Shown one piece after another: positions 13,790-62,128 of a DNA stretch of 64,000 nt. The stretch comes from Bispira polyomma (Eukaryota). Made by a program: the position numbers and the translations under genes. Each line of letters begins with the position of its first letter. Position 1 is the first letter of the stretch. Below the pieces are notes generated by a model. That model was not told the origin of the DNA. It saw only the letters and a list, made by a program, of their open reading frames with translations, and searched no databases. The stretch is taken from contig OZ287753.1 of assembly GCA_965649765.1 (NCBI GenBank), positions 49,848,001 through 49,912,000 of the forward strand. Reading direction: 5' to 3'.

Positions 13790-15474
13790 TAATAGAAGCA
13801 TTTATAAAGTGCAAAATTGATCAAAATCCTCCAATGCGCTGAATTGCAAAAAGGGATTGTCCTTCTTCAAGCGAAGGTTGTTGCCAAATGAGTGCAATCA
13901 GGAAGTAACTAAGGTAGGGGATATACCAGTCTGAACAAGTGAGTCTTTAGCTGGCTACGAATACCTGATAGTGTCTGCTGTGATCTGACATTTTGTGGCA
14001 ACCTGTTCCATTTTCCTGGTGCAGTGACAGTAAAGCTGCGCCTTCCACTTCTCCGTTGAGTGCGAAGTGAAACAAATAGTCTATTTCAACGTGTGAGGCT
14101 GCTGGACTTCATTAAGGAAGATAGGTAGGGAGGTTGGCAATAGTTAATAGCCTTGAAAACTAGCAGGTTGTACTTGAAAAGGATGCGATGTTCAATGGGA
14201 AGCCAGTGGAGTTTTTTAAGGTAAGGGGTGACATGGCTGAATCTGTCAAGCCTGTAAACAATGCGACAGAGAGCATTTTGGACTCTCTAGAATTTGGCTA
14301 TATTAGCCTTACTGACCAAATATAGTAAAGAGTTGCAGTAGTACAAGCGACTACTGACCATAGCATTTTCCACCAGAACTGCAGTATCAGCACTAAGAAA
14401 TCTACGAATTTGTCGCAAGTCATGTAGATGATAGTAACAGGCACAGCAAACCTTGGCAATATGGTTATTAAAGGAGTTGTCTGAGTCAAAGATGACACCC
14501 AGGTTTTTTACCTCTGCTGACGGAGTGATATTGTTTTGGAGTAATGAAATAGGACATTTTGGTGTAAGTGACTCTGTGGTGGGTTTGTTACCTATAATAA
14601 TGAACTCTGTTTTGTCTGGGTTGAGTTTTAATTTTGCACAATCCATCCACTCCTGGAGTCTAGTGTTAAGTATATTTGTGTGTCATCAGCATACAGGTAA
14701 TGGGTAACATTAAACTTTGAAATGACTTGACTGAGGGGGGGTAGTGTACAGGGTAAAAAACAGAGGACCCAAGACAGATCCTTGGGGAACACCGAAGAGG
14801 AGCAGATAGACCCTAGAAAAACTGCTACCAATTTAGATTTTTTGTTTACGGTCTAGGAGGTAGGATTTGATCCACCATAATACAGTCCCATCAATTCCAA
14901 ACTAGTCGGATAAACAGTGATATAAAATGGAGTGATTGATGGTGTCAAAAGCTGCAGAGAGGTCGAGTATTGTAAGGGCCACTGCCTTACCAGAGTCCAC
15001 TGATGTAGCTATATCGTTTTGAATCTTGAGTAGAGTGGTCTCTGTGGAGTGGGAACTCCGGTATGCAGATTGGTTAACATTTGCAATACCTTCTTGGGAG
15101 ATGAATCCATTTAGCTGTTTAGCCACGACCTTCTCAATGAGTTTTGAAATAAAACTGAGATTCGACACCGGTCTGTAGTTCTTTAGAATGTTTCTGTCCT
15201 GACTGGGTTTTTTGAGTAAAGGGGTGACATGAGCAGTCTTATAGCAGTTTAGAAAACTGTCCCCCTTTAGTGAGTAATTAAAAATGTTGGTAATTGGAGT
15301 TATAAGTATGTCAATACACTCATTCACCCGAGAGGTCGGAATGGGGTCAAGGTCACATGATTTAGAGGGGGAGGATTGTAAAATTTGAGCAAGTCCTGCT
15401 CAGATACTGGTGTAAAAGTAGACAAAGTATGTTTTATTAGGTGTGGTCTAGTGATTGCCGATGATAATGAAGAC
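13790..15474 (-). mobile_element. L2/CR1-group LINE RT remnant
   Basis: NYRPVSNLSFISKLIEK, DLSAAFDTINH, GVPQGSVLGP, YADDTQIY, LKLNPDKTEF. Confidence 0.9.
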
Positions 15475-17745: not shown

Positions 17746-17855
17746 ACGTTACTAGTAACAAATTAACAAATACAGATTTCTGAACTGTACTGGCATGCAG
17801 TAATGGAAATGTTCCCCAGATTGAATTGAAAGAACATTATTATTCTTTATTTTAC

Positions 17856-27892: not shown

Positions 27893-28090
27893 CTATCCTG
27901 GATAGAAGAGACATTTGTTAACACAAATTATTATATATCTTGCTTGGTTTACAGTTTTATTTATGTGAGTGGGAGAAGTAGTTATTGTGTACTATCTTGG
28001 ATAGAAGAGACATTTGTTAACACAAATTATTATATATCTTGCTTGGTTTACAATTTTATTTATGTGAGTGGGAGAAGTAGTTATAGTGTA
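27893..28090. repeat. 99-bp tandem duplication
   Basis: Two near-identical units starting at 27893 and 27992. Confidence 0.95.
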
Positions 28091-30216
28091 ATTCTTCTTA
28101 TAGCCCATTTTTAATTGTTTAGAAACCTAGTACAGACGTAGTAGAAGGTAATGCAAAAGTTAGGATCCCTGGTGCATTCGTTTCTGGACGTTGCTTAACA
28201 GATGATATCGTTCAGGAAACGTCTCCGTTTGGTCTGCTACCACGATCATTTCAAACTGCTTACGTACAATCGCCAACATCGTCAGAAAAACGTCACAAAA
28301 CGTCACAATCGACTGCATCTTTGTCAAAATGACATCACTTTCACACTAAACCACCCCGTTTTTAGATATATTGCTTTGCTACGTTGTGGGATAATAGCAC
28401 GTGTAGGTGTGACTGGGCTATAACAGGGGACAACATCATGGCATTGATGATGAGATAAAAGATGCCCAAGAAACATGTACCAAGGTCAATGTGTACATTT
28501 TAGGAAAACAAAAAGGAACAGCTTTTGAGGATGAATACCCTATTATAAATGTCCTCTATTTATGCCGTGTTACCACCTACCTCGTTGTGTGAAGATAACT
28601 GTGATAGAGTGACATTTAATAAAATCTGACTATATATTTGAATTTAGCACTGAAAGTTATAATAAAATACATGGTATAATTTGTATTCACATACATAAGT
28701 TACAAAAACCCTCAGAGTCTTAACCTTGGGTGTCTTTGGATAATGGAGTTGTTTTCACAAGAAAGGTGGCTTCAAATCTTAAATAATAGAACAATGTTAA
28801 ATGTATTATTTTCATGTTCCATTATGTTTATGGTTTTTTTAGTTAAACAACAAACACAACCCTAACACGTTGATATTGTAGTAGTTGAATTTTCATAACA
28901 GAAGTTTGACCTTAAGATTTACTCATGATGTTTAGGTTTTAATATTTAACACAAAGTAAAAAAAATAATTGGGCTTTAATATCAGAGCGTAGCACGCAGT
29001 TATTCGGTATATCAACAATATGACTTAAAGTGGTGATTCCACATTCAAGTTCGATCGGCAAAATGGGCTGGATTTTAAAGTTGGCAAGGTTGGGGCGAAA
29101 AAGGCGGGAAAATGAAAATGTGGGGCGACCTTCCCAATTGAACTGCTTGAGACCTGTTTTGACGGGACACCTACCACGATCGAACTTGAGGTCTGTTAGG
29201 ATCGAACTTACTGGTGATAGGATCTGACTATTGGCCTAAGATCAAACTTATCAGCAATACGATCTGGCCATAAAGATCAAACTTTTAAAAAGTCAAAGTC
29301 GGGACTGTTATGGTAAAATATTTGTCAAAAATTGTTAATTTAGTACCAGTACAAACATTGTAATGTAAGATATCAGCATTTCAATGGATTGGATATCTAC
29401 ATAGACAACAATACCAATAGCATAAAGCATTCATGTTATGAATAATATTAAATATCACAATAAAATATACAGTTATGAACATATGTGCAAATTATAGCTT
29501 TTTTATATTTCCTTAAGCTCTTTTGTCTAAGCACAAAGCTTCCAAGTTCACTCAGTACACAAGATAGCATAATGTACTGTTATTTAAGGTCACATATTGG
29601 GATAATCTGTTGTAAGTTGGTATCATTTGCAATTGGTAGATTTAAAATGGTGCTTACTGTTTACACGATTACAACTACAAGTATTTTGCCCTTTTTGTTT
29701 CTATATTTCGGGGTAGGGAGTAGTAAATGGTATATGGGCGTATGGAGGTAGTTTTCAGTGCTCAAACCCAACAATACAGCTGTATAAAGCTGAGGTTTGC
29801 TTGGACCCAACATCTTCTAAGTACAGTGACCTGACGTCATATCACTATAAGTGTCTTAGAATATAATTATAAGAATTATCTTTGTCTCAGCCAATCAGAT
29901 TCTCTGAAAACATATTTTCATCGCTACCCCTTATTTTGCATACAGTGATCAATTTGTATTGTAAATTAATCGAAATGTGTGTATTTAGGTGCGATTAAGG
30001 AACCGACCAGAATTTATAGCATGCCCTGTGCTGTCATGGATATGGAAATGTAAAAAGATATATTGTTAGATAGTGTTTTATGTATACAAAACTTTTTATA
30101 TATATATACAAAACTTTATATAGTCCAAACCAATCTATTCAATTAATTTCCATAAGGATAACATATTTTTGCTTCTGACTAAAACTTTATCACTTATAAT
30201 ATGAAATTGTTTAATC

Positions 30217-32839
30217 CTATTTTTTTGTTATTAACATGGAGTAATACAAATAATTCATGACATTCTCCAGTGGGTTCTGACTGATGATATACACTAGCTC
30301 TGTGTAATAACTGTCCATGATATCTCGTTTTTCCTTATCAGTCCTTGAGGGATTCAGTCCTCCATACTTGAATGAATAACTCCAACTCTTGATGACGTTG
30401 ACCATTCCTACTGCATACTCCGTCACTGTTTCTTTATCCTCTGTTTAAAATAAAAAAATAATAAAAGAAAAAATGTATTTGTTGTTTTGGGACAAAGGCT
30501 GAAGGACAGTTAATAAGCTAAATATACGCTGGGCCAAATTTATCAAAACGCACTTCCTGACTTGTCTTGGTAAACTAGAATTTCAAGAAATCTGCAACCC
30601 CTGGGCACTGATATACCTGTGAATACATTACTGTGCTCTTAGGGTGATTAAAGTACTAATATTGGAGTCAAGTATAATGTGTGATGCAGAAAACCAAAAG
30701 CTCTGAAGGAGTGTGATTGTACATGGAATTGACAGAAATCTTTAACATATAGCCGGTACAGAGGAAAAATATGTAACTGATATAGGAGGCTAAAATAGTA
30801 CAGACAACAATTTAAAAACTCTCTTGATATTCAGCTGAGTGACTGTAGTGTGGGTATGTTTTCAAGGTTTTCAGTTTTCAAAAGTTTTGCAATGTAATTG
30901 TAATTTTTAGAGAAGATAGATCTTTAAGAAACTGTTAGAAGTAGATAAAGATGTTTTGACATTCTTTTTCTTTGATTGGGATCTTATATTAAAATCTTCG
31001 ACATTGCCTGAATTACACTGCTGATTCACACAACATGTGTTTCATGGATATTAATTTATTTTTATTGATCGCCACTGCTTTGAAATGATGAAAGGTATAT
31101 CAGCTGATTTTGAAATATCAGTGGTTGCTATAATTACCCACAATTAAGCAAATTATCTGCAACACGAAAACTGACAATATGGCCTTAGTTTTTGAATAGG
31201 GCACAATCCAGGAAAGTGAAACAAACTATCAATGACTAAAACACTCACTAGTTTGTGTAAACCTTGTTAACATATCCTCATAAGTAGATGGCTGGAGTAT
31301 GACTTTCTCAATGCTATGCACTCTTAACCCAGATGCTTTTACAGGTGATCCCACTCCTTCAAATGGCTTCAATAAATCATTCTTGGTTCGTAACAGTACA
31401 GGGTAAGTGCATTGTCGCAGCTCTTCCTGAAAACATACAATAGTACTTAAGGTTTAACAAGGTGGTGTAACTGTAAGGTCTACACTTGTGTAAGTCCTGG
31501 CTTTAAGTTACATTTCGATGGTCAAACAACTATTGCAATACAGACATGGTTCCAGTGGTGGTGATTTCATTACTCAGGGATAAAAACACATTTTTGGGGT
31601 GAATCTGTTTTGGAGGATATGAACAGCTGGTGTTTTATGTAAATGGTAGCACATCAACGTAATTATTATTATCGTTATTGAAATATGTATATAACATTCC
31701 ATCAACATTGAAGGTGCTCGTTCTCCATAAGGGATAGTCCTACAATATAGCCTCGGTCACATTATGTCATCCCACCAATGAACCTAAATCATAAAAGCAT
31801 TAGCAGAAGTCAAACAGGGACTTTCTGATCACAAAACCCACTATGTTAGAGGAGACCACATGCAAGTATTTTATGCAGAACACTGTGCACTTCTTTTAGA
31901 TGCATATGTGTATACTATTTAGCTGTAATCAACACATGTTAGTTTCTAGTAATAGTTATTTTTTTCTGTAGTAAAACCTACCTTGGTAATGATGCCTCTT
32001 TTGCTAAAGTCAATCCAAAGGTCACAAACTGTTTTTAACAGGCTGTGATGCCTGACGCACCCTGTGGATCTTGCGTCCTCGTCAATTGCATTAACAAATA
32101 AAACCATAAACCCCCCTACAAAGTTTTAACCAAAGTGAATGGTAACCATATATTAACATATACAGAATAATATTGGAATCATGGAATTATAAACATGTCA
32201 CATGAATGTTGACCCGGCGATCAGATAAACTCCTTGAAACTCAATTCCTATCTAAAATTCACATTTAACATTTACAAAAGAGAAGGCTAATTGGTCCACA
32301 TGCCTCTGTTTGTGTAAACTCGCCAATCACTTTCAATTATTTATTTAGTTTTTAACAGCTTAGTAGGTCAAATCGCAAGGGTCATAACCACTAGCCTACT
32401 TCAAGTACCTGATAAACTTTCCCACATGAAGTGACAAACCCACATTGGTGAGAGGTCAGTGATTGCAAACCGGCACTAAGCATTTTAATTATTACATCAT
32501 AATATATATCGGACACTTGTCTGTTATGTCATGCAAAAACATGGAACTGTAGTATCAGGTTTAATCCTATATAATTGCATACATATTTTGCAACACCAAC
32601 CTGTCCTCAGTTCTTTGGCCCTAAGAAGTAGAAACTTTTCCAAATCCTTCTCTCCTTGTTTTTGAAATGATGTATTTTGAATGTCATCATAGAGGCAGGG
32701 CAAACATGTCTCTGTTAGACAAGGCCTACAGAATCCACAAATAATATTTTGCAACTGTGCTACACTATATTCAGTGATTATTAATGTATAAGGATATAGC
32801 TATACTAGCAATGTAAATTACCTGTTGAATATATAAAAT

Positions 32840-32911
<72 letters not shown>

Positions 32912-35900
32912 TGAAACACCAACAGTATAACAGTAGTGGCATTACATATAAAGGTCAATATAAAATATATGAATAAAATAAACTGCTAAAGTTGCAGACA
33001 TACAACCAAATTAAATTATACATTGTCTAGTTATGGACAATTAAAATGAAAACACAAACAGTGTAACAGTAGTGGTATTAGATATAACGATGAATATGAA
33101 ATGTATGAATAAAATTAACTGCTAAAGTTGCAAACATACAACCAAATTAATTTATGGTTTCAGGAAAAAGCTTCAATCCTATCTTTCCAAACTTGTCTGC
33201 CCCTTAGTTCCTTCCTGTACACCCCCACATCATACGTTACAAACAAGGCTGTGTTTTTTACTTCTCTATTGGTTAATTAATTCTGCTGTTGCACTTTAGA
33301 AAATGATTATCCTCAAAAAGGCACGTTAAAAATTCAAAATACAATACAACAGAGCTAAGTAAATGACAATAGAAAAACAAATACTTTAAAAGCTAAAAGA
33401 AGTTGAAAAATCAACTGTAATAAGATACACAATCTTTGCTTATGAGAACCATACAGATAATAAATTATGCATATGTGGGAGGCAAGTGTATTAACACTAC
33501 ACCACTGAAAGCTGCTGTAGTTTAGAAATATTAAACAACTGCATTATTGTACTTTGCTGCACAAATAAATTGATTGTCGCAAGACTAAAATGTGTTTACA
33601 TAGTTTTTACTTAGTGCATAGATGAAACTTATAACCTATATTTGTGTAGCGAAAAAAAAGAAAAGGAAATGCATATCTTTTGTTTTAAATGTCAAATAAG
33701 AACACCAGAGAAAGAGTATTTCTCTTGGGGATCAAGATAGCGCTTCAGAAAAATCAAAAAGTACCAACCTTTCACTGAGGAAATGCAGTGCAGTAGAACA
33801 ACACACCAGAGAAAGAGTATTATCAGGTAGACATTGTTTATAGAACGATGTCCCAGAGGCAGTCACAAATACGTTGTGCAGAGGTCTACCAGACACAGAG
33901 ACTTTTTCGCCAGACAATGTTTCTGCCAAAAAAGATGTACGAGATGTATGAATATAAAATGTTATAAGCAAAGTCATGTTTCCTAAGCAATATATATGTC
34001 TCCTGACTTATAGTTTTGTAATATTGACAGCATACTGTGAAGAATTTTGGCTGCTCTGCAAACGACCCCCCCTTAAGCAAGTCTATTGCCAACTTTTCCA
34101 CATACATTCAATGGGCAAGATTCAAACCCATGCCTGCATATGTGGGAGGCAAGTGTATTAACACTACACCACTGAAAGCTGCTGTAGTTTAGAAATATTA
34201 AACAACTGCATTATTGTACTTTGCTGCACAAATAAATTGATTGTCGCAAGATAATAATCACTTGTTGAAAACTCCAAATAAAAAAAAAATGAAATAATTT
34301 GGATAACAGGTGTGATTTCTACCTGAAAATGTCCTGAAGATAGACTTGAAGTCATTTTGTGGCATGTCTTCAAACACAACCGATACTTGTTTATCTGGAC
34401 CATAATGGAATCTGATTATCTCTGGAATGTTAAACTACATATATAAACTTGCAGTACAGTTTAGCAGATAAAACGTTGAGGTACAAAGAGACTACTATGT
34501 TAATAGAAACGATTTTAGAATTGAGCTTTAGTTATCAAATCTTAAAATCTTAATTAAATATACTGCCCATAACAAATCCTGCTCACCTGAATATATTTAT
34601 GTTTATAAAAGCAATATAAGTGAAGGGCACATGAAATATTAGATACATCATAGTTTGCTGTTTACAAAGCTACACTGGAATAGTGAGTTGCACCAACAAC
34701 TTTACAATATAGATAACCCGCTTGCTATAATGGTTGAAGGAAAAATTATAATACACTGGGTAACTTATTGTCCTGATTCAGCATTATTCCCAATGTTATA
34801 TGAAATTGTACTGATTTAACGAAACGCTTGTAAGAACACCTGGAAGAAATGCGCAAGCAATAGAAAAATACAGAAATACTTACCAACAATTTCAGGGAGT
34901 ATTTGGATAAATCCCAAACCATCAGCAGTACCAAAGTCAGCTATTGTGAATGGTCCGTCACTGTTCTCTAGCGTTCTTGCTTGCTCTGAAAATTAGAGTG
35001 CTATTTAAATCAACACAAATGGGGGTAATTTAAATTACTACACAAGTGCGATAATTAAATAATTAAATTGCACTCAATGGTGTAATGATTTTACCCACAA
35101 ACCCCCTCCACTGGAGTTGGCATAAAAAAAATTAAGCTACCCTTGCAATTTTATAGTACCCACTGTGTTTTTTACAAAAACATCTGGAATTGCTGCACTT
35201 CGAAAAATATTGTCATCCCAAGGCATTGTTTTACCATAGGAAGTATTTGCTATTAAGTAGTCTATTTATTGAATAAAAGTTTGATTTTCAACTTATCACC
35301 CTCTTTGGGAAAAGCAAATCTGCTACCATTCCTGTTTAAAGTTTAAATTTATTTATGAAATAAGAATAAACTGTTCACCAATGGCAGGTCTGTTTGTAAT
35401 TTTAATTTAGCAGACAGATAAGCACTGAGAAATACACTAAAGCCAAATGCTGAACTTACAGCCAAAATCAAAGTACTCTGTGCACCTACATTCCTGATAG
35501 TTCAATCAGATATATACTTCTAGCCAAACTGGCTAAACAGTACAAACTTCCAAGTTGTTAGCAAACAACTTTAAAATCAATAATAACATTCGCAGTGACA
35601 TAAAATGATTTCTAAATTTTCTTCCCCAGTTCAACGGAGTAACTTTTATCAAGCCTATCGAAATAGATAAAACACATATGATGTATCTCAACGCTTGCTT
35701 AACAGGAACAGAGGCCATTTGGGTGGATCAGGTATATGCTACACCCTTTCATAATATATATAGCCAGGAGATTTCCATTATATATCTGGAGATGGTCGAT
35801 ATAGTAGTGTCGTTCAGCATTTAGGCTGAACATGGGGCTCACTACAAAATTTTCTCTTTTTTTGGCATTTTTCGGGTTCTTCAGGATGTTTAATCTAGCA

Positions 35901-40700: not shown

Positions 40701-41018
40701 TGCACAGCAGGACCCTTTAGGGGCCTGATACTTCAGTCCACTTACAAACCTTTTAACTTTCATCACAACCTTAATTTCGGTTATACCAACAATATATGTA
40801 GCTATTTACTGGGCTACTAGCCAATCACAGCCCACACACTTGTTGTTTAGGCTTCACTTTCCAAATCACCATTTTGAATCTACATTCAAGCTATAAAATT
40901 CAAAGCAACAACAAGTGAAAAATATTTTATGAAATAAATGAATTGTATTTATGTGATTTTATTATTTTAACTTGGTTTTTATGACACATTGTGTGCTACA
41001 TATTGTGAATCAATCGAC

Positions 41019-42404
41019 ATGGGTCGTACTAAGAAAACGCCCACACACAGCTCAGTTAAAAAATCGACCAAGAAACCACTTACAGCAAGAAAGACAAAGG
41101 AAAGGCAAGTAGTTGATTCTCTCGTCTTGGACCTCGACGGTCAATTATCACAGGTAGCGGGCCCCTCTAGTACTGACAATTCTTTTCAACAGATAAATAG
41201 CGATGCCTCGCCAATGATGGCGACTCGGGGGTCCCTACTTAGGCCGGGTTCCGACACAACCAGCAGCCAGAATTCTGACCAAATGCTTGCCATTCTCATG
41301 AGGCTTGAAGCTTCTAACGCCGACTTAGCTGGCCGTTTGCAGAAAGTAGAGCAACAGGCATCGACTAACGCATCCATGTTACCTACCCCATCCCTCCTCG
41401 GGACAGGTCACACACCGGCCATCGGGCAGATGGGAACTACAGCTTCACTTAACGTGCAGGGTACATCTGCATACAACCAACCTGCTACAGGCCACCACGG
41501 TCAGATCGCTGCCGGATCACTACCACAGACGGGTTATCCTCCTCAACAACCAGCACAGGGCAACGCTGCATTCGCGCTTCCCACTCAGTCAGGCAATATT
41601 GCATGAGCTTATATGCAGAACACTAGACCAGACATCCCCGTAGCAACACACACGGGCTACGCGGGTCACGATTACCAACGAGACGGGATCGTACCGAATC
41701 TAGATGCTTTAAGAATCTTACCTCACGTCCAGGCGGAAGTTACCAGACAACTTGCTCAGTATTCAGCACTTGCACAGTGAGATATAACACAAGGTAAGGC
41801 ATCTCTTAAGCATAAATCGGGACGGTTCAATAACACAGACGTCACTTCCATGGATCCCAGGCTAAGGTGGCCTAACGAAGGGTGGGTAGGGGGTTCTTCA
41901 AAGAAGAAGCAAACGTTCGATGAACTCACACTGCCGCAGTGGGCTGCAGGGCAGCTCGCTAACGCGCTATTAGTACCTAACCCTGCTGAAATGAAGGATA
42001 TGGTAAGACAAATAGTATCAGCACTCAGAGATGCTTCATCTCTTCCGTGGCACGTTGTCAGGACAGCCTGGGCTCTCAGTATGCACGAGGTTGAGGAGGG
42101 CCGGCTGTCCTGGCAGAACGACACCCAATGGTCACTGAATAGGCTCAGTGCTTCCCAGGTAGCCATGGTCAACAGTGCAAACGTAGGTATTAGCAACAGC
42201 AATTCTAGCAACGATTCTAAACTTATTTGTAAGTTATATAACAATGGTAAATGTACCCACAAGTCAGATCACGACAAATACAAACACATCTGTTGGCATT
42301 GTAGCCGAACCCTGGGGAAGGACTCCAACCACCCCGAGTTCAAGTGTTACAGATCCAACAGTAAACAGCTGGACACTCAGGTAAACCAAGGAAAGCAAAG
42401 CTAG
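41019..42404 (+). pseudogene. gag: Ngaro gag (two in-frame TGA, at 41604 and 41778)
   Basis: ORFs 40989-41606 and 41850-42404 share a frame; RWPNEG, FDELTLPQWAAGQL, C-terminal Cys/His finger. Confidence 0.85.
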
Positions 42405-42685
42405 GTAATTCTTCAACAACCAGGAGAACGAACTATAGTTAAAGATAATTGCAAAGTAGAAATAAGAGATGAGCATGATAGTAACATTAAAATTGTAAAA
42501 GGTGAGCTTAAATCTAATGATGTTGATAATATACTGTGTTATGGTAATGAGAACAATGAACATATTAATGGAAATGAGAACATAATGCAAAACAATGTGA
42601 ACAAAATGTACTCTAGTAATTTCACAAATGTTTCGAATGAGGGCATGATGACGGAGTACAACTGTTTATCAGAGCATTATGATTT

Positions 42686-45139
42686 TTGTATGACAGTGTG
42701 CAATCCAGATGCAGTGGAAGTAAAATGCAGTACTGCAACAGCGAGTTAGCTGGTTATGTTAATTCCCAATACTATGATGGTAATTCTAAAGAAAGAGAAA
42801 GTAAAAATCAGATAGAAGTAACAGTCACTGTCACCAATTGGCAACATTTTTGTAAAAAATGGTTCGTTTGGGCTCCAATAATATTCTTAAACTGTAGCTG
42901 CAATGAAATTGAAGGGTTTTACTACATATACCATCATAGTGGGGACAATGAAATGAAATACATGCCTGTGTTTAATATACCTCAAGGAGATCTGCAGGTC
43001 ATACACAGATATGTCACAGCCATATATTATGATCTCACAGATAGATGCAAAAAATTACTAAGTAAGGTTAATCAGTGTAATGCTGAGGATATTGAACAGG
43101 CAGCCAATGTTTTCGACAATTTCAGTAAAGATGGAAAGTGTTACAAACAGTATGGCTGCGACTATTCTGAATATATAACGAATATTATTGATATTATGTG
43201 TGATGATAACTGGAAAGTAGATGACAATGCAAGCAGTGCAGACAAATTCAATGTAAATACTGCAGCTGGACACGAGACTCCAAGGAGTGTGCTCTGCGAT
43301 GAAATATACACATGTCCGATTCGCGATTTTTTCTTCAAAACTGATGGGGTCAATGCTGGCACCAGTAAGAACATTAAGGAAAATTGTCATATCGCCCAAT
43401 CAGGAAAATCAGTGGGATTTATTCCATTATCTTCCACAAAATTTCAGTTTATTGGTCCTGATCAGGAGCCAGTAAAAGTTGATTCAGTTGGTAAAATGGA
43501 AAAAATTGCTGCTATAGTTAGAGGCACTAATCTCCCTAATTATAGGCAGGCTAGAATTCCTTTAATTTCGGGATTACACCACACAGCGTGGGAGGAAATG
43601 CTTACTGACTATTCGGATCAGCTATTAATACAATATATAAAATTTGGGTTTCTTCTATCTCTCACAGAACCAGGGAAACTAAATAATTCAAAAACTGTCA
43701 ACCATTACTCTGCTTTGCAATTTACGAAAGAAGTCGGGCAATATCTTGAGAAAGAAAAGTCAATGGGGGCGATGTTAGGCCCAGTTAAGCAAGTGAACTC
43801 ACCACACTATCACTGCTCACCCCTTTTAACCAGACCCAAAGACACAGACAAACGTAGGGTCATTTTAAATCTTTCTTATCCACTGGGGCAGTCACTAAAC
43901 GAGAATGTAGACAAAGCACTGTTCGATGGGGTCAAATTCATATTAAAATTTCCTACTATTGACGACATCACAGAGGCGACTCGGAATACTCATGATCCAG
44001 TGCTGTTCAAGATCGACGTGGCCCGAGCGTTCCGTAACTTGAGAGTTGATCTAGCTGACGCACTGAAACTAGGCATACAATTCGCTGAAGGGCAGTACAT
44101 TGACTCTGCGGTCGCGTTCGGGTGGATACACGGAAGCGCGGCTTTTCAGTGTTGTTCCGATGCCATAGCAGCCTATATGTCGGAACGCGGGTTTAGAGTA
44201 TTTTGCTACATCGATGACTACATATGTGTATGTACTAGAAATAAGGCTGACAAGGGTTTCCGTATTTTGAAAGATTTATTGCTTAGGCTAGGTTTCCCAA
44301 TTAACGATGATAAGCTTACACCTCCCACAACTCGCCTTACATGCCTAGGCATAGACTTTGATATTACTGCCGGCACTATTAGCATACAGGAAGAAAAACT
44401 TATAAGCATAATTAAAATGGTAAATGACACCTCTCAAAAATTGCACATTTCACGTACTCAGTTTCAATCTTTATTAGGAAAATTATTATATGTTCACAAG
44501 TGCGTGAAACCTGCCAGAACTTTCATAAATAGATTACTTCAAGGTTTCAGAAGTGATCACAATGCTAAAAAATTCAAAATTTCTTCTGAAATGCGCCATG
44601 ACATCGACTGGTTTCAAAAATTCTTACCTCAATATAACGGGATATCATACATTAACCATAGGGACATTTCCCATATGGACGAGTTACATCTGGACGCCTG
44701 CCTATCAGGTTTAGGAGGTGTCTGGAACAAAGAAGTGTACTCTACACCATATTATAATGTTTATCAAAGAGAGCTTACCATAGTGCATATAGAGATGCTG
44801 AACATTGTCCTGGCTTTAAAAATTTAGGGTGAAAAATGGGCTCACAGTAGACTAATAATTCACTGTGACAACATGGCCGTCGTACTGGTTGTTGAAAGTC
44901 AGAAGACGAAAGACGAATTTCTAGCATTATGCTTAAGGAACATTTGGCTACTTATAGCCACATATGACATTAATATTAGCATTAAGCACATTCCAGGCAA
45001 GGAAAACATAATAGCAGATGCCCTTTCTAGAATTTATTGCAAAACTCCTCCCAGCAGGGACATGTTATATAATTTATACAACAATTATGTTTGGAATCCA
45101 GTACTCATACAACATTTTGACCTAGATTTTTTAATATAA
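42686..45139 (+). pseudogene. pol: Ngaro RT/RNase H (one in-frame TAG at 44825)
   Basis: NHYSA, SPLLTRPK, RRVILNLSYP, KIDVARAFRNL, FGWIHG, YIDD, LDACLSGLGG, HCDNMAV, HIPGKENIIADALSR. Confidence 0.92.
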
Positions 45140-45145
45140 TTACAG

Positions 45146-46122
45146 GTGCTACTGCCATTACTCAGAAACTCATCACTTCAGCATGTGGAAGGATTGACAC
45201 AGCACTTAGACCAAAGACTTCTTCTGCTTACGAAAATCAATTTAAAACTTTCCTGGCTTTTAATGAATTTGCAGGCATTTCAAATACTTCGGTTCATTCA
45301 GTACTGGCCTTTTTGGAATATTTGACACAAAATAACATTTCCCCTGCTGCGGTGTCAAACTACCTTTCTGCTCTTAAATTCATGGCTAGAAAGTTCATTT
45401 GGGATTTAGCTCCATTCAATCACAATTCTTTTGCATTATTCGTCAGAAGTATTACAATTAATTCACTATTTCGTCCCAGACACAAGGGATTGTTTGATAT
45501 TGCACAGCTAGCACAGATTTCCATAGCATGTTCTATTCTAGATGACCCAATATTATACAGATCCATATTTATGGTGGCCTATTTTGCTTTTTTGAGATTA
45601 TCCAATATTGCCCCTCACTCAAGGGCCACATTTGATAGATCTAGGCATTTTCTCAGACAGGACTTAATTTTTGGACATCCTGGGGCTCACATCATCCTAA
45701 AATGGGCAAAAAATTTGCAAAATAGGACAGATACACATATAATACAAATTCCAAAACTACAAAATAAGACTATTTGTCCAGTATTGGCATTACAAACCTT
45801 ACTAGCTTCCAGGCCCCTTCCTCCTGCTGCACCACTTTTTGCAGTAGCTGGTACACCACATTACACCATAGTACAAACACATGTAAGGACAGCTCTGGAA
45901 AAAGTCTTGACACACATTGGAATACAATATTCTTCACATGGATTCCATACTTTCAGACGTTCTGGAGCTTCATTTGCATTTAATCATAATGTATCCCTAC
46001 AGAATATAATGGCCCACGGGCTTTGGAGATCATCTTCAGTTTGGGCTTACCTCCAAAAAACCTCCCAGGCAGCATCAGTCGTGCCTCATACCTTTGCCTC
46101 TTCCATTCCTTCTTCTCTCTAG
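45146..46122 (+). CDS. Tyrosine recombinase (YR) of the Ngaro element; open frame with no ATG near its start, beginning at a splice-acceptor-like site
   Basis: ALRPKTSSAY N-terminus; catalytic R (FLRLSN), K (WAKN), HTFRRSGA, HGLWRS, VWAY. Confidence 0.88.
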
Positions 46123-47143
46123 TTGGGCTTGGGGCTTAAAATTTTCTGAATTTTAACCATTTTTACACTTGTTTCTCTGTACATATACCATTAACATGTA
46201 TATATAAAATAAAGCTCAAACTGAACCGTTTTATTTACTTACACAAACATCACACTTGACTTAAAATCCATTACTTAACATCTTGAACCCAACTTACACC
46301 TTATAACTTAAGTGGACTGCAATAAAGTGAACAATCAGTTTTATCGGATTAAAACTCTACCTAGGTGTGTTGAGGCATAGGTAAAGGGTTAACTGACCCT
46401 ATATGCCGGATCAGACCCAACAGTGAGACACCTTATAAGATTTTGTCTTTTCTGACTGGCGTCTGGGTTATCAATAGTACATATAAAAATCAATAACTGG
46501 TTCACTGCATTCCATGCTATTGTGATATCACAAAACATCGAAATGCCTCGTTTAGATATATGGCGATGTTTCACTAGTAATTTTGTTATTTGGGGCAAGT
46601 TATAAACATTTTAGTGGTGATATATATGCATTTTAGTAAAGTTTACAATGTGTATTTCGGTGGGGTTTTAAATAAATTTTATTATTCATTTACATTATAG
46701 ACACATACATCCAGCAGTTGAAAAATCAAGAAAACATCAAAAAAATTAATTTGTGCTGTACAGGTGTGACATTGCCTGGAGCTTTTGGCTTAGTTTTATG
46801 CTAAATTCTACAAATATAATTTGTGAATTATTTCGAGGTTTTTTGTTGTTGTTTTTATGAAATTTTCTTTATCAAATCATATAGTTTAATCCTAGTATGT
46901 ATTGATTTTTATGAAAAAGCACACACAGTAATATTTCACATTATGTAAACCTGAACTATGTATCAAGTTTTGAGTAATCCAGGTATCATGATTTTTCAAA
47001 AACCTCAGAACACCAGAACAATGTTTCACAATTTCATTGTATCTAAATATATAATCCAAGTCACGAACACAACAAACGCAAATAAAGCAATAATACCAAT
47101 AATATTTCAGATAAGTTTCACATGTTATTTTACATACTGGAGG

Positions 47144-47259
47144 AACTACCACCTTTCCAACATAGGCATCAACGAGAGTCGAACTCACGCCGCCCAGAGG
47201 TGAGAGACCAGTGATTGTGAAGCGCAATGCTTGCTAACCACTAGGCCACCGCAGCCCCC
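47144..47259 (-). mobile_element. tRNA-derived SINE (family 1), 5' half
   Basis: GGGGCTGCGGTGGCCTAGTGG...GAGTTCGACTC; homologous to 6058-6175. Confidence 0.85.
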
Positions 47260-48953: not shown

Positions 48954-49085
48954 ACGTGTATTTTAAAGTTCTCGATATATGATGCACAGAACTTCTTGTT
49001 ATACTAAATGGATCAATAACGTGTATTTTAAAGTTCTCGATATATGATGCACAGAACTTCTTGTTATACTAAATGGATCAATAAC
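48954..49085. repeat. 65-bp perfect tandem duplication
   Basis: Identical units starting at 48954 and 49019. Confidence 0.95.
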
Positions 49086-53212: not shown

Positions 53213-53416
53213 ATACTCCACTTTCCAGGTTCATTTTTTCTAGGTTCATTTTTTTCATTAGATTCCTTAATCATTCTTTTGTTTTCAAATATAAAAATGA
53301 TGTATTATATCTTTTTGAACAGCTATTTAAAAAAACTGCAAGAGTCAAAAATGCGATTGTATTATTTCTCATTCTATATCTTTTCCCTTCACTCTAAACA
53401 CATGGCATATGTATTG

Positions 53417-54790
53417 CAGTCCAGGTGATAAGTTATAAGTGAAGTTAAGGCCAAAATGGAAGTTGAGGTAAGTGTGTGGAAGACAATAAAAGATTTCTAT
53501 TGAGGTTTTATTTTACAAGTTAGTATTTATGTACAGGTTAACAATAATAAAATAAGTTATAATTTCATGTAAATAAAAATTTCAAGCCCATACAGGCTAC
53601 ATACATAACAGGAAATCATCCTGAATAATCAAAACAAGGACTAGCCATAAGAACAACATTAAAAGCCTAGTACAGACCACATAGTCATACATCACTTTAA
53701 GTTAACAACCATCCACCCCAGAATACTGGCAGTGAAGAAGTAATTATATAGTATGCATAAATTTAACGTAAAATAAAACTAATATCACTAGAATCAGTAC
53801 GTGATCGTTTCATTACATAAGCAATACAGGATCACTAATTATCCATCATATACATAGTCATTCTAAGGTGTGATCGTATATCCACAACAGACAATTTGCT
53901 AACATTACCTATGCACCTATCATAAATGGCACATAAACGTACATACACCAGCAATATAATAAATCCTACAGTGGACTTAACACGCCCATAAATGTTCAAA
54001 TCCCGTGATACTCGTTTACTCCTGACATTGTAACTCAACCGACTACCCGGTCCACTTAGTGCACATTTCCCTACGACAGCTCTCAGCCTGCCATCATACA
54101 TGTTAACCAAGCAACGTGTCTAACTTGACTAACAATGCCCACAGGGCATAGTGACCCTAGAGGGACACTCAGGCTCCCAGAGCCAACTAATTTGAAGGTA
54201 TCTCAAAAATAACATCAGGCCACAAGCCAAGCAATTTGTTGAAAATATTAAATATTAAGCTTAAATGACCACATGTAAGTGGTGGAAGAAAGGGGAGGTG
54301 GTGGGTTAGAATTTTCTAAAGACCTGTTCACAGGGCAAATTATAATTTCAATATGGAGGGAAGCTACTGGCCAAGCCTGTCAGTGGTCAGTATCTAGGAT
54401 GGACAGATGGAGGGATTATGCCATAGCATTCGCTAGGGGTTAAGGTAGCAATTAATTAAGTGAAGGGGGAGTTGGACTGAACTAGCAGTGTCCTATAGTA
54501 GACTTGCTATGCACAGTCCAGGTGATAAGTTATAAGTGACGTTAAGGCCAAAATGGAAGTTGAGGTAAGTGTGTGGAAGACAATAAAAGATTTCTATTGA
54601 GGTTTTATTTTACAAGTTAGTATTTATGTACAGGTTAACAATAATAAAAGAAGTTAAAATTTCATGTAAATAAAAATTTTAAGCCCCAAGCCCAACTAGA
54701 AAGGGGGGATAGCCGCAGCAAAGGTGAGAGGCACCACTGAGGCAGCTTGGGAGGTCTGCTGTAGGTAAGTCCATACAGCAGAAGACCTCC
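53417..54790 (-). mobile_element. 5'-truncated Ngaro 3' end (last ~31 YR codons, B1-A2-B2) flanked by a 19-bp direct repeat
   Basis: WRSSAVWTYLQQTSQAASVVPLTF; 173-bp repeats 54514-54686 and 53417-53589 (about 4 mismatches); ACACATGGCATATGTATTG at 53398-53416 and 54791-54809. Confidence 0.88.
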
Positions 54791-54826
54791 ACACATGGCA
54801 TATGTATTGTATTCCCATTTGTAATC

Positions 54827-57800
54827 CTATTCTTTTGTTATCAGCAAAGAGTAAAATAAGTAATCTAACACATATGATAGTGGATCCTTTATCACAATAC
54901 TCCGCAGTTCTGCAAAGTACATCTCCAGGATATCTTGCCTTTCATCTTCAGACCTGGAAGGATTTAATGCCCTGTACTGTGTTACATAACTCCAGGATTT
55001 GACGCTGTTGATCAGAATTACTGCATACTCACTGATCGCCTTGTTATTTTCTGTTTGTATGGAAATAGCAAATATATACATGGGGTTAATAGCTAATAGG
55101 CTTTTACAATTGATTGGCAATATAGTATCCAGTTCTGATAGCTAAGTCAATCTATGTGGTAAAATGGCATTGTCAGGTAGTCAGTCTAAAGTAAGCAACA
55201 GTATTACATATCTGTCTGTCAATCACTCACCAGCCTGTATATAACTCTTTACCAGATGGTCATATGTAGGTGACTGGAGTATGACTTTCTCAATGCTGTG
55301 CAGTCTCAGACCTGATGCTTGCACAGCCGATTCCTCTCCCTCAAATGGCTTCAGCAAGTCTTCCTTGCTACGGAAAGTAACAGGGTAAGTACTTTGTCTC
55401 ACCTCTTCCTGAGCAGGAAAGAATAAATCAATGGTATTACTACTTATGTTTTTGGCTCAATCCATATTTAAAAAATATGTGTTTACGGAGGTGTCTATAT
55501 GCCTTAGCACAGACAAGTTATGTATCCTCTAAATAAAGAACTGAAACCGGGTTTAAAAAAACCAATAAGATACGCACCCACAAACATTTAAAAAATTATA
55601 TCTGTACTCTGAGACAAAGCGTCCTATATGAATGTGGGTTCTATAACATAGTTATTATCTATAACTGTGTTAGTTACTAGATGTCTCAAATATTGCTACC
55701 AGTTATGAGTTATCTATTTATGTGAAAACCATGCAGTGCCTGTTCGTACAGATCTTTGGCTATATATGACCTTCGAGCATGATAGAGTTTGTCACGTTAC
55801 ATATGATACCACGGTACATAAAATAATAATATCAGGTAACAATGCCTAATTAATATAAGCTTTACTCAAATATGTCATTATTAGTGTCCGAAATACTATG
55901 AATCAGATCCTTTTCTAACTATGTGTTATGTCAGATTCATAAAGCCCTTTTTGCAATAATTGTGCCTCAACCTGGCACATTATCTCAGATGTACAGTAAA
56001 CTGAATCGAAGATAACCTGGACTATGAGGATTGCTAAATGCTTTTTAGGTTTAAGTCACTCTTTAAGTGGTGACAAGAAGGGTTGACTAATCATGATGAC
56101 TGCAGAGAAGGATACACCTGCAACCACTCCGCCTGTGCATAGTCTGCACTAAATAAGTCTCACAGGCCCTTCTTTTCCGGATATTTTGTACCCTTTGGGG
56201 TAAGGAGCCTCTACCACCCTTTCTCATTGATTAGGCTTGGTGTCATTGAAATTAACATCAACTATTCAATACACATATTTTAACATGTACAAGGTTTCAA
56301 TAAACTTGCAAATATCCATTTCACTGCCTTTTAATTTCAGTCTGACCTCAAGGTCATGCATCCTCTGGCTTTTGTGTCTAACCTTTTAACTTCACAGTCC
56401 TAAGAATCCTAAAGAGCATTTGTCTAAGTTCTTTGTTGTGTGCTCTGTTTGACATTGTACATATAACTACTACATGGGAACAGTGTTATGTCTATTTCTT
56501 AATTTAAATTTCCCTTTAGTCTGGTATTTACGGGTCATCTGGTAATACATAAAACTCAGGTAAATGTTTTACCTTGGTGATGATTCCTCTTTTGCAAAAT
56601 TCAATCCACAAATCAAAAATTGTTTTAGTTATATTTTTCTGCCTGGTATTTCCTGTATATCTTCCCTGCTCATCATGTCCAATAATAAATAACACCATAA
56701 GTCCTCCTGGAAATGTGAAACGATTTGAAATATGAGAAGATGTATATGATGTATTTTTGTGGTGTACTTTACTGTAATAAAATTGATAAAATTTCGGTCT
56801 GTCTTTGTGCCTCAAGGACCGCAAACTATGACTGTACCATATTCTCTGAATTCAATTAAAATTTGTACTCAGCATAGCATTGTATGTTGCTGTTTTCTGT
56901 CACTTAAAATCCCTAATTACCTCTTTAGACTGCAAGTATAGTCCGCTATTAACTATCACTAATAAAAAGTCCTTGAATTAAGTGATTTGAAAAATTTACT
57001 AATTTTGTCAATATGTCCAATAATACTAATAATACCACTGTAAATGTCTCTGTGTAACTGTTCTTATTATCTTTACTGTATTATAATGTCTTTTTGTAGA
57101 AATAAAAAGACAAAAATTATCACTAACCCAATGACAAAGGATCAACATAAAGAGAATGATTACACCATCACCTTAACTTAAAACAAATTACCCTGCTTGA
57201 ATTAACGTTAAATGACAATGATCATATTTTTTCTTTGATAAATTGATCAAATTATTAAGATTTCTTAGATATGTCTGTATAGCATGGATAGCATGCTTAC
57301 CGCCACATATTTAGACTGTGTCTATTAGCTCTTTAATTTGTCTGTTGAACTAGCAGGTTGTAAGGTATAATGTTTTTCCAATGAATGTGAGGTAGCTATG
57401 TGGTCAGTATAAAAAATTATTATAAATTTAATTTAATCTTTAGATACATAAGCACGTACTTTGAAGTTGATAGTGTTAGTCAGCAGAACGTAAGCTTTAT
57501 TGAACTTTAAAACTGTATGAAAACTGTTGAAGAGCCAAACACTTACTATTNNNNNNNNNNNNNNNNNNNNNNNNNNNNNNNNNNNNNNNNNNNNNNNNNN
57601 NNNNNNNNNNNNNNNNNNNNNNNNNNNNNNNNNNNNNNNNNNNNNNNNNNNNNNNNNNNNNNNNNNNNNNNNNNNNNNNNNNNNNNNNNNNNNNNNNNNN
57701 NNNNTTGAGACAGGACTAAAAGTAGAGTAGAAGGGGTAGAAGAGCTTGTTTTGTGGTGGATAACTTCCGGTATTTTGGGCTGCTGTCCCCCACCGGAAGT

Positions 57801-60800
57801 ATGTAAATAATATCCAATAATGTATACACTCATTAGTGTAAACCAATGTATATATTGTGTGTATATATTTGCCATGTACTTAAATACAATAAACAACCAG
57901 TGATTATGTCTGCCAGTTTAATAAACTGGCCATTTCAATCCATCACAGTGGTTTCCTTTTGTTGTTGTACACTCTGGCGCTGGGTAGCTATAAATATACA
58001 TATATATTAACTGTGCTCTTATAAATAGTTTCTTTCTTTCCTACTGTGTCAGTTCTTTTTAAGTTTGTCATACATTTATTTACTGAGTATGAAAAAAATA
58101 TCATTATTATTATTCAGCACTTTTGGTATGTTTGGTTATAGGTATCAAAAAAAAATATTCCGTTGTGTTTTCAGGGAGATAGGATATGACAATCCAAACA
58201 CAATTTTAAGGTCCCACCATACCTTTTGTGTGACAACTTGCCTTAAATGGTTACATGTGTGATAAATTTGAGGAAATTTTGTGACTGAATGATAGAATAC
58301 TTAATCAAAGTCAAATCATGCAGGTGTTTAAAAAATAAACTTAAAAATTAAAATCATGCTTTTCCCTGGGTAATGTAAAATCGATTTTTACATTATTGAT
58401 GGTTAATCTAAAATCACTTTTAAATTAATGGGGCTAAGCTAAAACGGGGATAATTTATAACTACTGTTTTTTTAAATTGTCGTTTGAGCCACTATGCTGT
58501 TATAATATGGAAAATCCAGACTGTGTTTGGAATGAAGCTCTCAGTGGTCCTCGGCAAGTGTATACCCACTAGGTTACAGTGGAAGGTTATTGTTCACAGC
58601 TTTCAATAGGGTAATTTAAAGTTGTTCTGGGAGGGCAAATCACATTAAAACTTTTAGAGAAAAGATAGACATCCTATATAACTGATTTGGTGTAAGTGGA
58701 CCACAATTCCTCTTTGTAAAAATAATGAAATTACATCTATATCAGACTGAATATGTTGAGAAATAGGAATCGAGATATGGCACGTCAGCATTTAACCATA
58801 TCGTGCAAAATTTTAGGATCAATATTGGAAGTACTAATTCGATTAAAACTATTTTCTCATATGTGTTTCTGCGTGGTAGGTTTCTTATATGTGTGAGTGC
58901 ATGAACACACTAGGTCCTATTCACATATAAGGTGGATTTTCATAAGAAATTATTCTAGTTATAGGTATTTCAGCTGTGATATGCATAGATAGTAAGTATT
59001 AATTCTAACCTGTCTTTAGTTCCTTGGCCTTGTGAAGAAGAAAGGTTTCCAAAATTCCTCTTTATAGAATCATTACATTTATATCAGACTGAATATGTTA
59101 ATAAATAAAAACATACATATGCCACGTCAGCATTTAACCATATCTACTTTCTCATATGTTTTTCTACGTGACAGGTGTCTTATATATATAAATGCATGTA
59201 CACATTCGGTCCTATTCCCATATAAGCGGAGATTTTATTTGAAATTATTTTAGTTTAATTATTTCAGCATAGATATGCATAGATAGTAATTTTTAATTCC
59301 AACCTGGCTTTAGTTCTTTGGCTCTTTGAAGAAGAAAGGTTTCCAAATCTTTCTCTCCTTGCTTTACAAATAATTCTTTGCTATTATCCTCATCATAAAC
59401 CCAGGGACACATACCATCTATGAGACACGGCCTATACAAAGAACCATTAAAAACATAAACTATACACATTTAAGCAACTATAATATCAAACGAGCTGCAT
59501 CACTTTCACTGTGCAGTAAGAAACTTTGTAATAATAACAAAGGTCATTAGCTGTCCTTGATTGGTATTACAGTGTTTAATCAAAATGGAGTCATCAAGAC
59601 AAATTCAAAAGTTTTACCCAAAAGGTACTGCAAAAAAAGGTTATGACTCCTTAATTACAGTACTTGTAATATTGTAATACAATATTGTAATTGTAATATA
59701 TATTAAAATTTCAATTGTTTGTCGACCTTTCAGAAAATAACATTGAGAAAGAAAATTATATTTTAAAAATTACATGTTTGTACAACTTTACTTAGTACAT
59801 CGCATTATTATATTCTTAAATTAGTTTTACCACACTCTACAACTATGCTAATATGGTTGTAGGACAGATTAAAGACATTGCCAGGGTATGTCTGTTAGTC
59901 AGGCACTAACCTTTTGCTGAGGTACTGCAATGAGGTAGAGCTACAGGCCAGGGACAGAGTATTATCAGGTAAACACTGCCTATAGAAAGATGTTCCTGAG
60001 GCACTCACAAACACGTCCCTCAGTTCCTGGGTAGCTTGACAAGGGATATTTTGCTCAGATGGTGTCTCTGTTGTGAATGGATAGAATTCCTTAGCTGTGA
60101 CTGTAAGTATCAAAGGTCTTAAACTTATCATCACAATAATCTCAAAATACTTTCTCCTGTATCTTTGTGTACAAGAAAGATATCTAGATTATTTAAGTTT
60201 CTTATAAAAAGGACCTAACTCTTTAAGACCAGCAGGCAATGGGCCTAACTTAACAAATAAACTTTACAATGATTGCAACATATATATATGTTACAGTGAA
60301 TATGTGTAATATATGTGGATTCCCTGTTTTGGTCAGGGAATACGCGTATTCCCTGAAATTATTAAATAGTTTTCACACAGGGATAAAAATAATTTTCACA
60401 TCAAATTAATGTAACAATATGCACATATAATGGTTTATGAATTCTTTTAATTAAATGAAATTAATTAATATCAGGAACAAGTATAATTGTTCAGTTTTAC
60501 ACATCTCATTCATGTTTAAGGGATCAAAGTCATTTTTACATTAAATTAATGCAAAAATATGCACATGTCAAGGTTCATTGATTCTTTTTAATAAAATTTA
60601 TTAATTTTAGATACAAGGTTGACTGTTATCTGATTAATATGTACAATTTTCGCATGAGCAATTATACATATAGTGTATTAATATAAATAGGATAAACATT
60701 TTTCAATAATTTGACAACAATAAAGTTACAACCCTCATTGGCTTCCAATGATACCCTAGGATTTTTTTTTAAATATTTCTTTAATGTTCCAAAATAATCT

Positions 60801-62128
60801 AATGTCTCCTTATAATTAAATGATAACTTGCAATCAAGAGATTAACACAAAAAGGTAAAAATAATTATTATTATGCACAGTTAATTCTCAGGATTATAAA
60901 GCTGATACGATTGCTTGAAGTATCAAGCCAAGTATTTAGAATACAGTAGGCTCTTTCAGATGTATATTTAATTGTAATGGCTTCTCGGCGAAATATTCTT
61001 TCTGGTGTTTCTTTTCTTTCAAACAAACATCAAATATCATTCAATGTAAAAGGATAAATTTCAAAAGACTTTTGAATTATAATTAGTCGCAGTTATGTGA
61101 AGGCCTGACATATTGTGGTTGATATATAAGCTAACTGTTTCATTTATGTTCATTCCTGATTTAATAATCAGTACCATGCCTCAATCAATTAAATATCAAT
61201 TAAAAGATTAAAAAAATTTCAAAATTGCCAAATTTAAAAACAAATCATGTATACTCTTTGACAAAGTAAGTATGTTTTAAACCGGTCAGAATTACAAAAG
61301 TAACTTCACATTTGCTTTTGAAAATTTGTACATTTACTCAAATACTTTTAAAAGTTTGACTTTGTACAAATTAATCAAATTCAGATCTTATATAATAATG
61401 TTTAATTGTTACATTGCGATTACTTTCGTAAAACTGGAATTTTTTTAGACTTATTTTAATGAGAATATTAATTTCTGCAAAACAAAATTAGAATTGTTTT
61501 TTTACTTCAAAAATTCAATATTGTTTTAAACATTAAAATAACTTTGTTAAACTTAATTCAGTGCATTCGCATATTCCCTAATGCTCAAAAATAATTAATA
61601 GAAGTTTTAGGGAATGTATATTGAATTTTTTACACATTACACATATTTACTGTAACATATACATATTTCATCTAATCATGAAAGGCAATTTCTTAGTCTT
61701 AATCTAATGTAACACCAAAGTTTTTACATACACAAGTCACACTACTATTTAGATATATTACTTGGTATTGTAGTTGCAGCTTTGATACAGTTACAAATTT
61801 TAATTCAATAAACTGTGTGATGCCCCTTACATATAGTCATGTTAAACATGTGAATTACACTATTTTGGGATAAAATAAATGCCCACTGGCTCACATTAAG
61901 ATGACAAAAACTGCTAGTGATATGAATCTCTTGGCTGCTTTGAATAGAAGCAAATATGAAAGTATGTCTATAAATTTGTATGCATACATACTTGAAAACT
62001 CCTTTGTATAAAAGATGTGAGATTCTTACCTGAAAAGTTCCTAAAGATGGATTTGAAGTCATTTTCTGGACCATCTTCAAACACAACCGATACTTGTTTG
62101 TCTGGACCATAGTGAGATCTGATTATCT
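54827..62128 (-). CDS. SABATH-family methyltransferase copy B, exons 3-8: 62030-62128, 59911-60067, 59304-59431, 56573-56706, 55231-55408, 54827-55050; exons 1-2 presumably beyond window
   Basis: Same intron positions and phases as copy A, open frame; EDGPENDFKSIF, SGTSFYRQCLPDNTL, STSLQYLS, DLETFLLQRAKELKPGGLMV. Confidence 0.9.
57551..57704. other. Assembly gap (154 N) inside intron 5 of copy B
   Basis: Run of N. Confidence 1.
58707..59346. repeat. Diverged tandem duplication that includes the 3' end of SABATH exon 5 and its donor
   Basis: Units start ATTCCTCTTT at ~58707 and ~59054; pseudo-exon LETFLLHKAKELKTG|GT at ~59010-59052. Confidence 0.85.

Follow-up and report, generated by a model that had tools for sequence, protein, structure and literature searches.

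Retrotransposons of the Ngaro type, which carry a tyrosine recombinase (YR), end in a set of split direct repeats, B1-A2-B2, that follows the YR open reading frame (ORF) (PMC9210276). Integration of DIRS-type elements is described as leaving no target duplication (PMC3266345), and one account of the DIRS order states that, as of 2020, the specificity and chemistry of its recombinases had not been tested (PMC7192593). By the same account, both terminal repeats are largely missing from DIRS-1 transcripts and are restored in the cDNA, which is mostly linear and single-stranded. YR sites usually have a spacer of 6-8 bp (PMC3212892). Short non-coding derivatives of the 3′ repeats of YR elements are also on record, as SIRE and solo AB repeats (PMC6681497, PMC8547959). 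Outside this group, L1 is known to mobilise HERV-W RNA (PMC5016936) and, in the primate retro-DNAs, the RNA of DNA transposons (PMC11195612), giving copies that often lack their 5′ part and have a longer target-site duplication (TSD). Mutants of ASLV ends, and HIV-1 under strand-transfer inhibitors, give integrations with one precise, enzyme-made end and one truncated, host-made end at which host DNA is duplicated (PMC5041404). In the Drosophila P{wa} assay, aborted SDSA leaves a partial copy that runs from one end of the element and is sealed by end joining (PMC8951532). Integron integrases act on a folded site, of which they exchange one strand, and replication then resolves the product (PMC3458562). 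A literature search of titles, abstracts and passages returned no report of truncated Ngaro or DIRS copies flanked by a TSD, and none that describes a motif at Ngaro target sites or the folding of a Ngaro junction.

The locus described here lies in a 64,000-nucleotide stretch of the Bispira polyomma assembly GCA_965649765.1 (contig OZ287753.1, positions 49,848,001 to 49,912,000), which we call the window and to which all coordinates refer. On the minus strand, a Ngaro fragment of 1,374 bp (53417-54790) stands between two exact copies of a 19-mer, one on the 3′ (B2) side of the element (53398-53416, starting with CAATA on that strand) and one on its truncated 5′ side (54791-54809). As the earlier note had stated, the insert starts in the last YR codons and ends at the B2 terminus. 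Read along the minus strand, it consists of the last 31 codons and stop of the YR ORF (54696-54791), cut off at an invariant Trp codon, followed by B1 (54514-54686, 173 bp), A2 (53590-54513, 924 bp) and B2 (53417-53589, 173 bp, terminus GGACTG), the order that is found in Ngaro. B1 and B2 are identical at 169 of 173 positions and differ at four. The first 74 nt of A2 align to the start of another Ngaro in the window, at 40701 (66%, E 0.008), and A2 holds no ORF longer than 94 aa. Up to 24 of the 31 residues of the YR tail are identical to those of database relatives, and the tail contains a putative catalytic tyrosine, so labelled from YR motifs. A1, ORF1, RT/RH and about 90% of YR are missing; what remains is non-coding and dead. 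In being short and without coding capacity it resembles SIRE and solo AB repeats, which also derive from the 3′ repeats of YR elements; they comprise A-B only, whereas the insert retains B1 and the YR tail as well and is flanked by a long duplication. The 19 bp also set it apart from the DIRS-type integrations described without target duplication, and from a canonical YR insertion, in which both ends are precise and no long duplication is made.

The element at 40701 is a near-complete Ngaro of another family (40701-46319, plus strand) with A1, ORF1, RT/RH, YR and one B repeat, and with stop codons in ORF1 and RT/RH. It matches the RVT_1, RVT_3 and phage integrase profiles and has no methyltransferase match. 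The combination of a gag-like ORF, RT/RH and YR without the DIRS methyltransferase domain is thus seen on this element, and the insert holds only the YR tail of it; on repeat structure and domains, the insert would be labelled a piece of a Ngaro-like YR retrotransposon. The 40701-46319 element has no long TSD, the longest word common to its two ends being 5 nt. It lacks A2-B2, as expected from recombination between B1 and B2 or from a shortened circle, and is nested in an older Ngaro that starts near 39630. Four more decayed Ngaro copies, all of other families, lie at 11.7-13.6 kb (minus strand), 35.5-38.2 kb (plus), 39.6-40.7 kb (plus) and 49.2-53.2 kb (minus); a 324-aa open frame without a Pfam match is found at 10573-11547 (plus), and the A1 of the 53.2 kb copy starts only about 180 bp from the insertion site. 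Origin of the insert from a neighbouring Ngaro in the window was considered and rejected, with a best match of 73%, and no second copy of its family is present within the 64 kb. Pattern scans of a collection of genome contigs that excludes eukaryote genomes gave 59 and 76 pattern matches, of which none was confirmed.

The 19-mer occurs exactly twice in the window, with no third match at up to three mismatches. Two matches were reached in none of 100 shuffles, and the chance of a match at one given position is 7e-12. The bases outside the two copies differ, so the repeat is exactly 19 bp, and the perfect duplication proposed in the earlier note stands. It had also been asked there whether the 19-mer might belong to the element consensus. 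This is ruled out: the invariant Trp could be placed in 110 of the 120 YR relatives listed, the six residues preceding it read I-M-A/S-H-G-L in 101-110 of them per position, and the insert has QYICHV instead; the element therefore stops at the Trp codon, and the 19-mer is host DNA. In tblastn, homology to YR ran past the junction to 54848; this was dismissed as a chance extension, as the stretch in question belongs to the last exon and untranslated region (UTR) of the host gene. One base, 54791, belongs both to the Trp codon, as its first, and to the 19-mer, as its last, a feature that the first reading had not included. Microhomology at the 5′ junction amounts to 1 nt for certain, and would amount to 3 nt had the missing Leu codon had TG as its last two bases. 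At the divergence of B1 from B2, a 19-mer stays perfect 64% of the time, so both clocks agree. The insert is a real, aberrant, single insertion at one locus.

At the other end, the last base of B2 is also the one at which B1 and the B repeat of the 40701-46319 element stop, and B2 abuts the 19-mer with zero added bases, that is, with no poly(A) or repeat tail. CAATA follows both the B2 end of the insert and the B end of the 40701-46319 element, as had been noticed before, and the match extends further than that, with an empty site reading TA/CAATA (the slash marks the cut) at the insert and at this TSD-less element of a different family. The 7-mer TACAATA has a frequency per position of 2.5e-4 and CAATA one of 2.0e-3, figures to be read for a motif that was noticed after the fact in two insertions. 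Of the three B-end junctions readable in the window, two continue with CAATA; the third, that of the old 35.5-38.2 kb element, whose B copies are about 79% alike, continues with TAGTA and matches at three of five positions. Likewise, two of three readable left flanks end in TA, that of the 39630 element ends in GA, and the 53.2 kb start is too decayed to be placed. An alternative register, with a shared TGCA core at the 40701-46319 element, was weighed; CAATA is common to both registers, and the one used is favoured because it gives hairpin spacings of 33 versus 34, rather than 31.

AATAAA precedes the B end by 90 nt in the insert (53512-53507) and by 107 nt in the 40701-46319 element, and a third family has the signal too. 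From the position of AATAAA, and by analogy with DIRS-1, we consider that the mRNA of a Ngaro should stop short of the terminus. The donor was then probably finished DNA, and not mRNA, because the full B2 terminus was carried along.

The earlier note put forward, as its lead inference, a retroposition of Ngaro RNA in trans by a LINE or Penelope element. Such target-primed reverse transcription, starting from a nick, fits these ends poorly, and we consider it unlikely. It would account for a 5′ truncation with 1-3 nt of microhomology, and the 19-bp duplication is near the TSD range of L1 (7-18 bp; 7-15 bp for RTE), just outside the majority range quoted (PMC6007223); ZfL2-1 makes TSDs of 5 bp (PMC4245944). 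The mobilisation of HERV-W and DNA-transposon RNA by L1 is a precedent for such a transfer. Remnants of LINE reverse transcriptase are present in the window, and, of two SINE copies tested, one is flanked by an 11-bp repeat with one mismatch, which 7 of 300 random pairs also reached. Read-through RNA that included the donor's own CAATA flank could even prime by microhomology. Against this, LTR/HERV-W copies moved by L1 end at the RNA end (U3-R), with poly(A), at TT/AAAA (PMC5016936), and retro-DNAs have the same tail and motif (PMC11195612), whereas the insert is tail-less, ends at a DNA terminus 90 nt past AATAAA, the RNA end itself being inferred, and sits at a site like that of a YR insertion. 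The site TA/CAAT matches TT/AAAA at only three of six positions, the upstream flank is A/G-rich and without the T-stretch about 10 nt upstream that RTE would lead one to expect, and the B end has no match to LINE tails within the window. Most LINEs, moreover, are of the stringent type (PMC4176376), and the route predicts neither the left-hand TA match nor a junction exactly at the terminus.

The LINE remnants lie at 13.8-15.4 kb, 17.2-17.5 kb, 20.0-20.2 kb and 21.2-22.2 kb; some have short repeat tails and look L2/CR1-like by eye, and RVT_1 was confirmed at 14902-15396. The 13.8-15.4 kb copy is directly upstream of the 11.7-13.6 kb Ngaro remnant. The SINE-like repeat has three copies (6058-6296, 2726-2958 and 47141-47259), the 6 kb copy being the one with the flank repeat; the head of the SINE-like repeat resembles a tRNA by eye, and ARAGORN finds no tRNA in it.

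One feature not included in the first reading is the position of the insert, within a host gene's 3′ UTR. A gene for a SABATH-like methyltransferase occupies 54827-62128 on the minus strand, with six GT-AG exons that splice to an open frame of 303-316 aa and a TAG stop at 54829-54827. It matches the Pfam profile Methyltransf_7 (E 8e-8); its first exon was not found in the 64-kb window, and its last exon found no homologue in the search. The first 17 nt of the 3′ UTR (54810-54826, minus strand) end in the TA that forms the left half of the target, which places the cut 17 nt into the UTR, on the strand of the insert. An in-frame fusion of the host protein with the YR tail is ruled out, the host stop being 36 nt before the insert. 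Genes of this kind are arranged in tandem, all on the minus strand, with paralogs at 30.2-35.0 kb and 54.8-62.1 kb and a lone first exon of a third at 17851-17964.

The earlier note had proposed that an empty allele with a single 19-mer be found, and this could be approached through a paralog, whose last exon and 3′ UTR (30080-30444, minus strand) served as a stand-in for the allele. A single-copy model of the empty site, anchored at the stop codon, is colinear with the paralogous UTR across the site, with a 2-nt gap. Over the 100 nt beyond the 19-mer the score is 64, as against 36.5 +/- 6.4 in shuffles, none of which in 1000 did as well; for the first 60 nt, 8 of 1000 were as good. The YR tail, as a control, scored -3 (863/1000 shuffles). 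The 19-mer itself is at chance level (523 of 1000 shuffles score as well), and the likeness resides in spacing and flanks. Colinearity thus supports a single-copy empty site, in so far as a paralog can stand for an allele, and the 19-mer adds nothing to it. The insertion may also have had an effect on the gene. The AATAAA of B1 (54609-54604) is 218 nt after the host stop codon, and the empty-site model has neither AATAAA nor ATTAAA within about 830 nt. Supplying the methyltransferase gene with a new poly(A) signal would be the one likely effect of the insert, and the mRNA may plausibly end elsewhere as a result.

An assembly artefact would be another way to such a structure. At a heterozygous site, a contig of the empty allele reaching 19 bases past the site could be butted to a contig of the filled allele that ends where the multi-copy YR collapses. 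The scaffold has a 154-N gap 2.7 kb away (57551-57704), other perfect duplications (67 and 117 bp) are present, and the break is at the edge of the coding sequence common to the copies. Assemblers usually leave N at contig joins of this kind, and the junction contains no N; B1 and B2 were resolved with their four differences, and the other perfect repeats (17, 19, 21, 67 and 117 bp) have no common length. We regard an artefact as quite improbable.

The account that we put first, tentatively and by judgement and not by computation, is a one-ended Ngaro integration that was finished by host repair. This was the option named last in the earlier note, and it fits best among the routes. As the colinear model shows, the element met an intact host site with the 19 bases in single copy. 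Its YR would then have cut the target at TA/CAATA and joined to it, with the precision of a normal insertion, the B2 end of a completed DNA donor. At A1 a second joining would have failed, and the free donor end would have been broken or trimmed back to the last YR codons. Some 19 nt beyond the cut, this end would have paired by microhomology of 1-3 nt and been extended or end-joined, so that the 19 host bases were copied a second time, with replication fixing the product. This account is favoured because of the exact B2 terminus, TA/CAATA, the missing tail and the colinear empty site. The anatomy of one normal end, one truncated end and host duplication at the aberrant end is a matter of structure, from which the order of events has been inferred, and it resembles that of the aberrant retroviral integrations. 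These are made by a DDE integrase on linear double-stranded DNA, whereas the insert comes from a YR element, and their duplications are usually hundreds to thousands of bp, which counts against the 19 bp seen here (PMC5041404). The product of a one-ended integration would mimic a LINE insertion with no need of a LINE.

Aborted copying from a full-length allele, a route absent from the earlier reading, gives the same product. A full-length YR insertion would have come first; in a heterozygote, the empty allele would later have broken some 19 nt beyond the site. Its end would have invaded the filled allele and been extended across the 19 bases, B2, A2, B1 and the YR tail, until synthesis stopped prematurely at about 1.4 kb and the product was closed by end joining. 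Template switching from one allele to the other is a variant with the same outcome. All the features seen are predicted, including a YR-type 3′ junction and microhomology, and aborted SDSA closed by end joining is documented in the P{wa} assay (PMC8951532), in which the partial copy likewise runs from one end. The Drosophila events start at a gap made by transposase, whereas break and donor allele are hypothetical here, and the route requires that a break arose independently, no more than about 20 bp from an insertion that was still polymorphic, and that the new allele then spread. Local duplication of short stretches is frequent in the window, which counts for either route. Besides the 19-mer pair, five isolated exact direct repeats, 17-117 bp long, were counted after the rows of an AT microsatellite had been left out, whereas 20 simulations gave an expectation of 0.05; this suggests that short local copying is common there. 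We hold inter-allelic copying to be a possible, less favoured course of events. In the sequence, it and one-ended integration yield one and the same product. For the two combined, that is, for a 3′ junction made by the YR, we judge the case to be reasonably good, again without computation.

Some of the repeats in the window have features of their own. A perfect 117-bp direct repeat (33468-33584 and 34135-34251) flanks 550 bp with a methyltransferase exon, from recent local copying or as an assembly quirk, and another exact 19-bp repeat (33702-33720 and 33803-33821), in an exon and the next intron, resembles a templated repair insertion. There are tandem duplications of 65 bp (perfect, 48954-49085) and 99 bp (97%, 27893-28090), and a 65-bp minisatellite at 8091-8582.

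A linear piece of Ngaro cDNA could also have been taken up by end joining where an unrelated break had left staggered ends, without any part for a recombinase, an idea that the first reading had likewise raised. The mostly linear, single-stranded cDNA of DIRS-1 would provide such pieces (PMC7192593), and the microhomology at the 5′ junction is in keeping with it. The exact B2 terminus and the TA/CAATA match are both left to chance, and we think capture of this kind very unlikely.

The B terminus has a structural feature that also counts for one-ended integration. In the 40701-46319 element, the last 11 nt of B (46309-46319) have a perfect inverted complement 33 nt into A1 (40734-40744), which fixes the A1 start of that element. 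In the insert, the B terminus has an inverted complement of 7 bp at offset 34 in A, and the junction of B1 with A2 can be drawn as a hairpin (54473-54520, minus strand) with a 7-bp arm at 54520-54514, its inverted complement at 54479-54473 in A2 and an inner stem. Folded as single-stranded DNA, a modelled circle junction has a z of -5.3 (0/500 shuffles), and the natural junction of the insert one of -2.6 on the sense strand (4/500) and -1.8 on the other (24/500), in windows picked after the stem was seen. The last 90 nt of B have no structure (z -0.09), and the arm is absent from the old 35.5-38.2 kb element. The 7-nt core of the arm is identical in both families, which is conservation and not covariation. 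For the inner hairpin at the start of A, covariation is weak, with a compensatory change in two of ten pairs among five copies, and single-copy z values are -0.7 to -1.9, the insert junction apart. The inverted pair shows, as far as these repeats go, that the B terminus is a working end and a real boundary in two families.

Arms 33-34 nt apart are far from a spacer of 6-8 bp, which makes a fold-back substrate the simpler reading. An attC site has an outer stem, an unpaired spacer, an inner stem and a loop. The modelled Ngaro junction is likewise predicted to fold into an outer stem, a short unpaired spacer, an inner stem and a loop, a likeness of layout; the arms are shorter in the family of the insert. 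A bold extension, which we offer as speculative and rather unlikely, is that Ngaro integrates like an integron cassette. A single-stranded cDNA circle would fold at its B-A junction into an attC-like hairpin, the recombinase would exchange one strand at a preferred TA/CAATA, replication would resolve the product, and the present locus would be a trapped half-reaction. If this were true, Ngaro 3′ ends that are flanked by a TSD and look like the work of a LINE would be the genomic footprint of integron-like half-reactions.

The locus is a warning that 5′ truncation together with a long TSD is no proof of LINE action. As a single dead fragment it has modest weight, and it becomes important only if the structure recurs genome-wide. 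It offers three testable leads, in the motif at the target, the folding of the junction and the product of a failed reaction, and it is probably a rare misfire that hints at how a little-studied class of elements inserts.
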